6,231 bases of DNA. Origin: a virus (Duplodnaviria > Heunggongvirae > Uroviricota > Caudoviricetes). Positions 789 through 5,568 of this stretch are shown in pieces (positions within the stretch are counted from its first letter, which is position 1; the number at the start of each line of letters is the position of its first letter). The notes beneath the pieces are model-generated. The model was not told the origin of the DNA and did not search any database. It saw nothing but the letters and a program-made list of their open reading frames with translations. Location: the IMG/VR virus record IMGVR_UViG_2648501230_000014; one strand, given 5' to 3'. The position numbers were made by a program, and so were the translations under genes.

Positions 789-1820
789 ATGGAAGCTACT
801 GTGGATTCGATTGATTTTCTGATCCGTAGTGAAGATGATTTTCTAAACTTTCTGGAAGAAATGAAAGCCCGAGAGGGGCTTGATTCTAAAGAGTTTATTT
901 TCCCTAACGTAAAGTTTGCAGGCTGGCCATCCTTAGACATAAATGTAAAAGGAGAGCGGTATCATTCATCAATTACATCAGCAATGTTGTTTGGTATGTC
1001 AATGCTCAACGAGGAGATACAGCGGGCGTTTGCAACCATACGATACGGATCGCAGAATCTTCAACGCTTGACTAATGAAGACAAGCAACGACTTGATATA
1101 AATTTTAAAATTAGCGAAGGTTCTAGTGATGCGGAAGGCACCACTGACAAGATCATCAACGCAGTAACTGATTTTTTGCGAGATACTATGTCTGGACTGA
1201 ACGGCTGGCAGAAAATGCTTGTTATAATCACAATGGTTGGCGCGGCCAGCACATGTGGTTATCACTACATTTCAGAAAATGCCGTAACAGAAAGACATGC
1301 AACTGATCGGCAGGTTGAAATTGCAAAAACCACATCCGATGGCATAAACAAAGCCATAGAAGCAACATTAGATTATAAAATCTATGGGAAATCAGCGATT
1401 AGCGATAAAGTTACTAGTCACGGACAAGCAGGTAAAAGTGCTTTAGTGAAGCAATTAGCTGCTGATCCTACTGTCGAAACCGTGACTTTAGGAAATGAGA
1501 AACTAACACGACAAGACCTAAATACCTACAACAGCCGACAATCTGTAGATAGAGAACGTAAAGAACGAACTGATATATTTTCCATCAAAGGTGTAACCAG
1601 AACAGGGCCAACAAATCAGGATATTAATATTAACGTTGTTAGGGTCTCTAATGACGAATGCTTCACAATCAAAGCTTCAGCTGATGTTATCACCCAAGAT
1701 GAGTTGACAGCTATTGTTGACGCTTTGTCAAACAACTCTCATATTAAAATCAGTTACTTAGAGGTAATTGAAAAGGGTGCTGTTTCTATAGGTCAGTTCA
1801 ACACTATTGTTTCAGAATAA
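789..1820 (+). CDS. Hypothetical protein (343 aa), first gene of a cargo operon; possible single-pass membrane protein
   Basis: Long ORF starting at the first ATG after an in-frame stop; AAGGA RBS at 777-781 with 7-nt spacer. Central hydrophobic stretch WQKMLVIITMVGAASTCGYHYI (residues 140-161). No catalytic motif I can assign. AT-rich relative to the tail genes. Confidence 0.8.
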   Translation: MEATVDSIDFLIRSEDDFLNFLEEMKAREGLDSKEFIFPNVKFAGWPSLDINVKGERYHSSITSAMLFGMSMLNEEIQRAFATIRYGSQNLQRLTNEDKQRLDINFKISEGSSDAEGTTDKIINAVTDFLRDTMSGLNGWQKMLVIITMVGAASTCGYHYISENAVTERHATDRQVEIAKTTSDGINKAIEATLDYKIYGKSAISDKVTSHGQAGKSALVKQLAADPTVETVTLGNEKLTRQDLNTYNSRQSVDRERKERTDIFSIKGVTRTGPTNQDININVVRVSNDECFTIKASADVITQDELTAIVDALSNNSHIKISYLEVIEKGAVSIGQFNTIVSE

Positions 1821-2711: not shown

Positions 2712-3266
2712 TTATTTATCTCCTGCCGGAAACCTCTGATACAAAGTCGATACGCCAACATCATAGATAATCGCAACTTTCTGGCGCGGAACTCCTGATG
2801 CAATTAATCGTCCGGCTTGTGCCCATTGTTCTGGTGTAAGTTTGGGACGACGTCCACCAATTCGTCCCTGTGCGCGAGCAGCTTCCAGTCCAGCTTTTGT
2901 TCGTTCAACAATCAGTTCTCGTTCCATTTCAGCCAGGGCCCCCATCACATGAAAGAAAAAGCGCCCCATTGGGGTACTGGTATCAATTGAATCCGTCAGA
3001 CTACGAAAGTTGATGCCTCGTTCGCGCAACTCCTCCACCAGCACGACAAGATGCCGCATACTGCGCCCCAGTCGGTCCAGTTTCCAGACCACCAGCGTAT
3101 CGCCTGCCGATAATGTCCTGAGCAGTTTTTTCAGTCCCGGCCTTTCGGACTTTGTACCGCTTATCTTGTCTTCAAAAATCAGCTCGCATCCTGCACAGTT
3201 CAGCGCATTACGTTGTAGATCTGTGTTCTGGTCATTTGTTGACACACGTACATAGCCAATAAGCAT
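2712..3266 (-). CDS. pin: Site-specific DNA invertase, serine recombinase of the Pin/Gin/Cin/Hin family
   Basis: 184-aa product MLIGYVRVSTNDQNTDLQRN...WKLDRLGRS...GINFRSLTDSIDTS.PMGRFFFHVMGALAEMERELI.ERT is an unmistakable match to Gin/Pin invertases (catalytic Ser in YVRVSTNDQ, C-terminal HTH). Start set at the ATG (3266..3264) preceded by GGGAGA, not at the longer ORF-track start at 3302. Stop TAA at 2714..2712. Confidence 0.93.
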   Translation of the reverse strand: MLIGYVRVSTNDQNTDLQRNALNCAGCELIFEDKISGTKSERPGLKKLLRTLSAGDTLVVWKLDRLGRSMRHLVVLVEELRERGINFRSLTDSIDTSTPMGRFFFHVMGALAEMERELIVERTKAGLEAARAQGRIGGRRPKLTPEQWAQAGRLIASGVPRQKVAIIYDVGVSTLYQRFPAGDK

Positions 3267-3292
3267 GGTAGATCTCCCTGACAAAAGCAGGA

Positions 3293-3805
3293 ATGATGCC
3301 ATTTGCTCGTTATTTCTGCATTTTCATAAACGTTGGTTTGGGAGAAGGTTCGGCATTACCCGTTGGTGTGCCTGTTCCGTGGCCTTCCGCCACTCCGCCA
3401 ACGGGGTGGCTAAAATGTAACGGAGCAGTATTTTCTTCTGAAAAGTACCCAAATCTGGCAAAGGCTTACCCAACATTAAAATTACCAGATTTACGCGGTG
3501 AATTTATTCGTGGCTGGGATGATGGGCGCGGGATTGACTCTGGTCGTAACTTATTATCTGCACAGAATGATGCAATTCAGAATATTGTTGGTTCTTTTGG
3601 GCGTACCCAGCTTTTTAGAGACGTACTTAGTTCAGGGCCATTTAGTCAACATGGGCAAGTATTATCTACAGGTCTAAAGGAAGCCGAAATTATTGAGGGT
3701 TATGGCGCTTATAACTGGACATTCGACGCATCTCGCTCAGTTCGCACAGCATCTGAAACCCGCTCCCGTAACATCGCCTTTAATTATATTGTGAGGGCTG
3801 CATGA
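3293..3805 (+). CDS. Alternative tail-fibre C-terminal variable cassette (promoterless, OFF orientation; stfE-like fragment)
   Basis: Translation contains the tail-fibre C-terminal signature ...GWLKCNGAVFSSEKYPNLAKAYPTLKLPDLRGEFIRGWDDGRGIDSGRNLLSAQNDAIQNI... The reading frame passes through the crossover site (NVGLGEG). The functional part begins at about 3335; the ATG at 3293 is probably fortuitous. Confidence 0.7.
   Translation: MMPFARYFCIFINVGLGEGSALPVGVPVPWPSATPPTGWLKCNGAVFSSEKYPNLAKAYPTLKLPDLRGEFIRGWDDGRGIDSGRNLLSAQNDAIQNIVGSFGRTQLFRDVLSSGPFSQHGQVLSTGLKEAEIIEGYGAYNWTFDASRSVRTASETRSRNIAFNYIVRAA
3321..3346. promoter_or_regulatory. Invertase crossover site (pix/gix/hix-like), pin-proximal
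   Basis: TTTTCATAAACGTTGGTTTGGGAGAA; reverse complement TTCTCCCAAACC-AA-CGTTTATGAAAA follows the 12-2-12 hix/gix layout (compare hixL TTCTTGAAAACC-AA-GGTTTTTGATAA as recalled). It is an inverted repeat of the site at 5266-5291. Confidence 0.8.
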
Positions 3806-4824: not shown

Positions 4825-5568
4825 TTACCGTCCAATGATTAACGCTGAGACGCTGGTATCTGAAGGAAAGGCTGCATTCAGTGGTTTGTCGACTTTGAAC
4901 ACAATCGTATTATTCCCCCTGACAGCGGCAAAAGAACAAACCGCCGTCGCGTATGAACCTGTAATATTACTGGATACACCACCATAAGCTGTTGTTGATA
5001 CCAGAGGGATAACGCCCAGCACCTTATTAGGAAATACAAAGGGCAATGTGGCTGTGGCAATATAAGACTTATTAGAACCTGTAATGGCATAAGCATTATC
5101 AGTCATTCCATTCATCGCCACTGGACCGCTTATACTTACAGTAACCATCTGAATGATTAGCCCGTCAGGTTGACGAATCACAAAATTTCCATTGCCACCA
5201 GTAACCGTCCAGAAAGACATATCAGGGATTTGGTTTTCCCCGTTGCCCACATTTCGTTTTGCCGCTTCTCCCAAACCAAGGTTTTCGAGAGCCGTTTTCA
5301 CCGTGCCATCAGATTTGATATCGCCAAACGGATTCTTGCGGCTTAACAGCAGCGCACGAAGCGCGGTAAGCAGCTGGTCATGCCGCCCCTTCTCCAGGCT
5401 GGCACCGGATGCCTCCACCACGCTGCAGAGTTCTTCCTGCAACATGTCAAAGTAGTCATCATCCAGATCGGTGGCAGGTGTGCCGGTCTGGGGGTTACCA
5501 CGGGTAAAACCGTTCTTACCCGCGCCGAACTTATCCTTCTGCGCGGTTTTCGTGTCTATACGATGCAT
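4825..5568 (-). CDS. Tail fibre protein (constant N-terminal part outside, variable C-terminal part inside the invertible segment; stfP-like)
   Basis: 247 aa; GGAG RBS 6 nt upstream of ATG (5568..5566). The crossover site lies in-frame at residues ~93-101 ([10 protein letters not shown]). Follows the gpI-like gene with a 3-nt gap. Confidence 0.85.
5266..5291. promoter_or_regulatory. Invertase crossover site (pix/gix/hix-like), inside the tail-fibre gene
   Basis: TTCTCCCAAACC-AA-GGTTTTCGAGAG. Matches the pin-proximal site in inverted orientation at 18 of 20 positions around the AA/TT core. Confidence 0.8.

Follow-up and report, generated by a model that had tools for sequence, protein, structure and literature searches.

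A phage protein family with a probable, marginally hydrophobic transmembrane helix at prophage positions that usually hold exclusion or defence genes

What is the role of a single hydrophobic segment in the middle of an otherwise charged phage protein? The question is raised by a 6,231-nucleotide stretch of DNA from a virus of the Caudoviricetes (IMG/VR record IMGVR_UViG_2648501230_000014), referred to here as the window. A gene at positions 789-1820 on the + strand, with an AAGGA ribosome-binding site 8 nt before its ATG, encodes a protein of 343 residues that we call A343. It is identical to WP_021530618.1, which is annotated as hypothetical. The annotated coding sequences in E. coli XH990 and in locus L012 are 100% identical to it, and the DNA is 99.7% identical in E. 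coli 042. An initial annotation of the window described residues 140-161 as the only strongly hydrophobic stretch of the protein, and suggested a membrane-anchored effector that acts with a small soluble partner in abortive infection. The lone central helix is a modest observation. Its value lies in the protein family and in the genomic positions that the family occupies.

Nucleotides 1206-1271 (+) translate to WQKMLVIITMVGAASTCGYHYI, which corresponds exactly to residues 140-161 of the 343-residue reading frame, as initially annotated. The segment is rich in G, A, S and T, and its uncharged core spans residues 143-162 (nt 1215-1274). D, E, K and R together make up 26% of A343. The highest 19-residue Kyte-Doolittle mean in the protein, 1.41, belongs to residues 143-161; the best window that does not overlap them has 0.71. 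The description of the segment as the only hydrophobic stretch is therefore borne out, but "strongly" is an overstatement. The thresholds applied for a transmembrane segment were a Kyte-Doolittle mean of at least 1.6, an Eisenberg mean of at least 0.68 and an insertion free energy that is negative or near zero. The Kyte-Doolittle value is below the usual cut-off and is reached by 45% of shuffles of the same protein. The Eisenberg mean over 21 residues is 0.48, above 0.42 and below 0.68, and the unweighted Hessa sum is +3.7 kcal/mol. All three values weigh against a membrane anchor. Judged by this single sequence, the segment is no better than chance, and its reality comes from the family.

In comparison with a control set of 40 proteins, all from the same E. 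coli locus, the segment resembles transmembrane and signal segments and not soluble cores. Its run without D, E, K, R, N, Q or P is 20 residues long. The transmembrane and signal segments among the controls have runs of 19-29 residues, and the globular soluble proteins have runs of at most 14. The Hessa sum of the segment is below those of all control cytoplasmic proteins (at least +5.8) and above those of true transmembrane helices (at most +1).

The family of A343 comprises 76 clusters at 90% identity in Enterobacterales, and a profile search extended it to 840 clusters at 50% identity. Nearly all members are 310-380 residues long, and the range extends to Pseudomonas and Pseudoalteromonas. 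In 28 of 30 close homologues, the Kyte-Doolittle mean at the aligned segment is at least 1.6. Among 134 distant representatives, the hydrophobic maximum is always found at residues ~126-138, and it reaches at least 1.6 in 70%; none of them contains a second hydrophobic segment. The charge-free run has a median length of 19 residues across the family (10th-90th percentile, 18-24). The window copy (143-162) and the family members thus have a single uncharged segment, in the size range expected for a single-pass protein (about 18-25 residues). The flanks of the segment are also recurrent, with K or R common at positions 140 and 142, Y, W or F at 160, and D or E at 162. Few parts of the protein show lower sequence identity than the segment, while hydrophobicity is retained. 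The hydrophobic moment is low (0.19), indicating that the helix is not amphipathic. The stricter scales remain unfavorable at the family level and add to the case against an anchor: just 10% of the members pass 0.68 on the Eisenberg scale, and just 22% have a Hessa sum below +1, with an unweighted median of +2.3.

Across the family the segment keeps its hydrophobicity, its length and its position but not its sequence, and in this it behaves as a membrane anchor and not as a conserved core helix. On these grounds we consider it quite likely that the segment is a transmembrane helix (residues 140-161, nt 1206-1271, +), probable from hydropathy, family comparison and controls, and marginal in its hydrophobicity. 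An AlphaFold2 model of A343 (overall pLDDT 70.8) contains a helix at residues 139-153. The pLDDT is ~74 as far as residue 150 and has dropped under 50 by residue 156. The helix is followed by a low-confidence stretch at 156-187, located between two folded parts. The proposed anchor is thus favored over a buried core helix by the family pattern and by this model, and disfavored by the weak hydropathy of the window copy.

Two features of the modeling also count against an anchored protein. The modeled helix at the segment is short, only 15 residues. In addition, the N-terminal domain has fewer strands and lower confidence when modeled alone than in the full model, and it could therefore pack against the rest of the protein. 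A343 may instead be soluble, with the helix buried against the N- or C-terminal domain, or in the core of a homo-oligomeric bundle together with the helices at 172-224. The short modeled helix is compatible with such an arrangement, as is hydrophobicity that is marginal in the window copy and moderate in the family, and some soluble control enzymes reach similar Kyte-Doolittle values (tyrA 1.61, pheA 1.49). However, the sequence of the segment is poorly conserved, yet its length, its charge-free run and its K/R, aromatic and acidic flanks are kept. The segment has no heptad-like polar positions and its hydrophobic moment is low. A 20-residue run without D, E, K, R, N, Q or P is absent from all globular soluble controls, and the linker that follows the helix in the model is of low confidence. 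A soluble A343 is on this evidence rather improbable.

If the segment is an anchor, the most plausible topology places the N terminus in the cytoplasm. A343 has no N-terminal signal peptide. Across the family, the net charge is +0.67 on the N-terminal side of the segment and -0.79 on the C-terminal side, and K/R residues are richer on the N-terminal side in 86 members versus 53 with the opposite bias. In the biogenesis of bacterial membrane proteins, an N-terminal domain of about 140 residues is rarely exported without a signal. An N-in, C-out orientation is favored because of the missing signal peptide, the 140-residue N-terminal domain and the weak charge bias of the flanks. In this orientation the conserved N-terminal domain (~135 residues) would be located in the cytoplasm, the central hydrophobic segment would form the one membrane-spanning helix, and a helical stalk and a C-terminal OB-fold domain would be located in the periplasm.

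The N-terminal domain (nt 789-1193, +; residues 1-135, 1-132 in the model) is an α/β domain with no recognizable fold in the AlphaFold2 model. No other part of the protein is as well conserved in the family; its motifs are GWPxLxINVKG, LTNEDKQxLD and EGS. A long helical region follows the segment at residues 172-224 (nt 1302-1460, +), assigned by DSSP on the model as helices 172-200 and 203-224. It is the least conserved part of the protein, with the highest column entropy of all regions, and is possibly a coiled-coil stalk in the model. The C-terminal domain (nt 1554-1808, +; residues 256-340) is modeled confidently as an OB-fold, a five-stranded closed β-barrel that superposes on known OB-folds. 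Its resemblance to SilF/CusF, YgiW and the B subunits of AB5 toxins is one of fold only, with 7-15% sequence identity. Cytoplasmic nucleic acid-binding OB-folds score nearly as well against it as periplasmic ones, and the fold therefore leaves the compartment of this domain unsettled. A Foldseek search of the PDB with the full model returned nothing at E ≤0.001.

Databases offer little annotation for the family. A343 has no match in Pfam, NCBIfam or PADLOC, and its sole match in PHROGs is phrog_6191 (unknown function), with an E value of 7e-38. Pfam searches with 70 diverse members gave just scattered single weak matches, including a weak PilO match in one member. A profile search of PDB sequences with the family returned nothing significant; weak matches to MotB and Tom20 span the hydrophobic stretch and seem to reflect composition. 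Literature on the A343 accession, on phages phi458 and PhiR12, and on exclusion proteins beside cI yielded no study of the protein.

Outside the cassette that carries A343 in the window, a relative is always a single gene, and its neighbors vary. At about 19 of 43 IMG/VR loci, and also at L014-16, it is located directly downstream of a CI repressor gene on the same strand. Seven different CI repressors upstream of relatives were confirmed with Peptidase_S24, six of them also with an HTH domain. The relative in phage phi458 (46% identity) lies directly after cI. The same is true for PhiR12_2 (26% identity), with N downstream, and the same annotated gene is present in the other four PhiR12 records. 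Where N was identified, in L014 and PhiR12_2, it lies beyond the relative. This place after cI is a recognized hotspot and is occupied elsewhere by rexAB and bstA, two abortive-infection loci whose transcription is shared with the repressor (PMC8585504). In L007, L046-48 and L050, the relative is found in the interval between the attachment site and the integrase gene. It adjoins an invertase gene in L002, L005 and the window. A343 itself has the pin invertase on one side and the ssrA attachment site on the other; in e14 this place is taken by the restriction enzyme McrA (mcrA). Two distant chromosomal relatives adjoin defence-type genes, namely nuclease, AbiE and helicase genes. These are positions in which prophages usually carry genes for exclusion or defence.

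Two further observations concern the relatives. In PhiR12_2 (L064, 3899-4924) the relative is annotated as "T2SS GspM containing protein". This label was rejected as a sign of homology; it is probably derived from structure and reflects a shared layout, in which a transmembrane helix is followed by a helical stalk. In L056 and L059 (4123-6056) the relative follows a lambda K-like tail protein (Prok-JAB and NlpC/P60), inside the tail gene cluster.

Does A343 act together with a partner? The gene is followed by an open reading frame for a 114-residue protein, B114 (1872-2216, +), which starts 51 nt 3' of A343 and has a GGAG ribosome-binding site. A scan of 1820-1872 found no terminator between the two. 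A hairpin terminator with a 10-pair stem and a T-rich tail lies after B114 (2244-2266, +), suggesting that A343 and B114 are probably a single transcript in this cassette. In a two-component abortive-infection system, A343 would be the membrane-anchored effector and the soluble B114 a sensor, antitoxin or regulator. The shared strand, the 51-nt spacing and the position of the terminator are in line with such a pair, and the two genes co-occur in all 46 E. coli genomes that have either. However, the 46 cassette copies are at least 99% identical. They therefore represent one recently spread cassette and provide no independent co-occurrence.

The soluble partner of the initial annotation is not supported by a wider comparison. 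B114 has no match in Pfam, NCBIfam, PADLOC or PHROGs, and no diverged homologue among 5.8 billion proteins. Proteins 84-86% identical to B114 were considered as relatives and rejected as likely artefacts. The one checked by DNA alignment, P0226 (locus L013, 1221-1553), differs from the window sequence by nothing but a 1-nt homopolymer indel. The 343-residue gene of L013 is likewise split by a frameshift. The frameshifts in P0226 and L013 appear to be assembly errors that create false diverged relatives. B114 is absent beside every relative of A343 except in copies of the same cassette (L001, L012, L013, L018-21, L024). In particular, an 81%-identical copy of A343 in Mangrovibacter and a copy in Citrobacter adjoin the invertase directly, without B114. 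Judging from this distribution, B114 is a lineage-specific addition and not an obligate or family-level partner. Because B114 is missing outside the cassette, the A343 family is a stand-alone gene that works without it. The lack of diverged homologues, together with the absence of B114 beside the relatives, leaves the two-component system unsupported, and we consider it very unlikely.

The positions of the family suggest a function. On the best reading, A343 represents a new family of phage-exclusion or abortive-infection proteins that would be expressed by the lysogen and anchored in its membrane. Acting at the inner membrane or close to it, the protein would protect the lysogen against other phages, by a block to the entry of their genomes or through triggered abortive infection; an entry block fits equally well. 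Taken as a whole chain, this reading is evenly poised between right and wrong. Several points weigh against it. We infer the anti-phage role from genomic position and neighboring genes alone, and accessory-gene positions also carry non-defence genes. No homology to known defence or exclusion proteins was found in Pfam, NCBIfam, PADLOC, PHROGs or a profile search of PDB sequences, and no sigma-70 promoter was found upstream of A343 in the window.

Some of the same points would suit a membrane-anchored lysogenic-conversion protein that has no part in defence and acts in envelope or stress physiology, or in control of the prophage's own induction or lysis. Genes without defence functions likewise occur at accessory positions beside cI, the attachment site and the tail-fibre genes. 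Periplasmic OB-folds bind metals or sugars, as in SilF/CusF, the AB5 toxin B subunits and YgiW, and A343 has no homology to any defence family. These points are opposed by the genomic evidence. No site is better documented for the exclusion and abortive-infection genes of prophages than the one after cI, e14 has McrA at the equivalent position, and the distant chromosomal relatives adjoin nuclease, AbiE and helicase genes. A role outside defence is considered unlikely.

The weak hydrophobicity and the G/A/S/T-rich composition of the helix also raise the question of whether it works as a switch and is not permanently anchored. In one version, phage entry would be sensed by the periplasmic OB domain, which is variable, and a signal would pass across the membrane to the conserved cytoplasmic N-terminal domain. 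In the other, the helix would be shielded until infection, and would then insert or oligomerize and depolarize the cell. The signal-anchor-release (SAR) helices of phage endolysins are weakly hydrophobic and able to leave the membrane. The A343 helix, if it is a switch, would resemble them. Such a mechanism, in either the sensing or the shielded version, seems decidedly unlikely. If true, it would be a new single-protein, transmembrane-signaling prophage defence that is common at the rexAB position.

The preferred exclusion or abortive-infection protein can be compared with several known systems. RexAB, BstA, the superinfection-exclusion (Sie) proteins and SNIPE are functional analogues of A343, and none is a homologue. 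Lambda RexA and RexB are encoded between cI and N. Many relatives of A343 are likewise located directly downstream of cI on the same strand, and before N where N was identified, and their expression with the repressor is presumed. If A343 is anchored, a membrane component is present in both systems. Unlike A343, a single gene whose product would span the membrane once at most, RexAB consists of two proteins, and RexB is multi-pass and a reported ion channel. At all loci outside this cassette the A343 family is a single gene, in contrast to the two co-conserved rex genes. In addition, the window copy adjoins the invertase and the attachment site and not cI. No match of A343 to RexA or RexB was found in PADLOC, Pfam or NCBIfam, assuming that PADLOC 2.0.0 contains RexAB models. 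BstA of prophage BTP1 is similarly a single accessory gene after the repressor in prophages of Enterobacterales. It is cytoplasmic and associated with DNA, whereas the A343 family has a central hydrophobic segment, and no homology or shared domain with BstA was found for A343 in Pfam or PADLOC.

P22 SieA, HK97 gp15 and T4 Imm block genome entry at the inner membrane and, like A343, are encoded by single genes at accessory positions of prophages or phages. SieA, gp15 and Imm are small and mostly embedded in the membrane. A343 differs from them in having two sizeable soluble domains. SNIPE (PD-lambda-1) is a single-pass inner-membrane nuclease that cuts phage DNA during injection (PMC13190303). 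Like A343 it is a stand-alone protein, and it shows that one transmembrane anchor can bring a defence protein to where the phage genome enters (PMC13190303). The SNIPE helix is located near the N terminus, and its DUF4041 domain and GIY-YIG nuclease lie in the cytoplasm. In A343 the helix is central and an OB-fold is C-terminal, and neither DUF4041 nor GIY-YIG was found by Pfam or PADLOC.

The region between cI and N of lambdoid phages is the classic site of exclusion genes, and the A343 family is a recurrent occupant of it. The family is widespread (840 clusters), unnamed, and without an assigned domain or a known function. The proposed layout of a conserved cytoplasmic domain, one weak transmembrane helix and a variable periplasmic OB-fold differs from known examples. 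If A343 is a membrane-anchored exclusion or abortive-infection protein, it would represent a new, easily testable single-gene system, and would help to account for the resistance to phages that is seen in E. coli, Enterobacter, Klebsiella and Serratia lysogens and in those of related genera.

The 6.2-kb window is a mobile-element junction. Nucleotides 1-422 contain the 3' end of the P4 alpha (primase) gene and the cis-required replication region (crr), and are 98% identical to phage P4. The 120-bp direct repeats of crr are found at 123-243 and 303-423 and are 83% alike. This match indicates a P4-like satellite in tandem with a prophage at ssrA. A degenerate copy of the ssrA 3' end, the attachment-site core (TTCAAACTCCGCCAGCCCA, 561-583, +), was identified by aligning the window with the end of ssrA in E. 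coli 042. This copy marks the junction of the two elements, with the prophage boundary just upstream of A343. In E. coli genomes the cassette is directly preceded by ssrA. A GC-rich hairpin followed by a T run (GCCCGCAAATTGCGGGCTTTTTT, ~706-730) is located 58 nt upstream of A343 and was missed by the terminator scan. An Rfam scan of the window found no RNA family.

Among 5,426 complete E. coli genomes, 46 carry the same cassette, at least 99% identical. In the inspected records it follows ssrA directly, where an e14-like prophage ends. The same insertion between A343 and the invertase also contains C70, a 70-residue reading frame annotated as hypothetical (2301-2513, - strand). C70 is convergent with B114 and shares the hairpin at 2244-2266 with it; no match to C70 was found in any family library (Pfam, NCBIfam, PADLOC, PHROGs). 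GC content is 38-42% in 500-base windows centered on nt 500-2500, and 43-55% across the invertase and tail genes. The low GC of the cassette fits separately acquired cargo.

The invertase, at the tail-fibre end of the prophage, is a Pin/Gin-type serine DNA invertase with Resolvase and HTH_7 domains (2712-3302, - strand). In E. coli XH990 it is annotated as pinE, with 184 residues. The open reading frame as mechanically called encodes 196 residues and starts 12 codons before the annotated pinE start (MLIGYVRV...), which corresponds to position 3266 and is probably the true one. Beyond the invertase are an invertible tail-fibre segment and a baseplate gene of the Mu gp48/YmfQ type. A 20-nt inverted repeat, AAACGTTGGTTTGGGAGAAG, is found at 3328-3347 and 5265-5284, with 95% complementarity, and bounds a segment of ~1.9 kb. 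The two repeats look like crossover sites of the pin invertase. The segment contains two alternative tail-fibre C-termini (3293-3805, +, and 4825-5568, -) and two convergent tail-fibre assembly genes.
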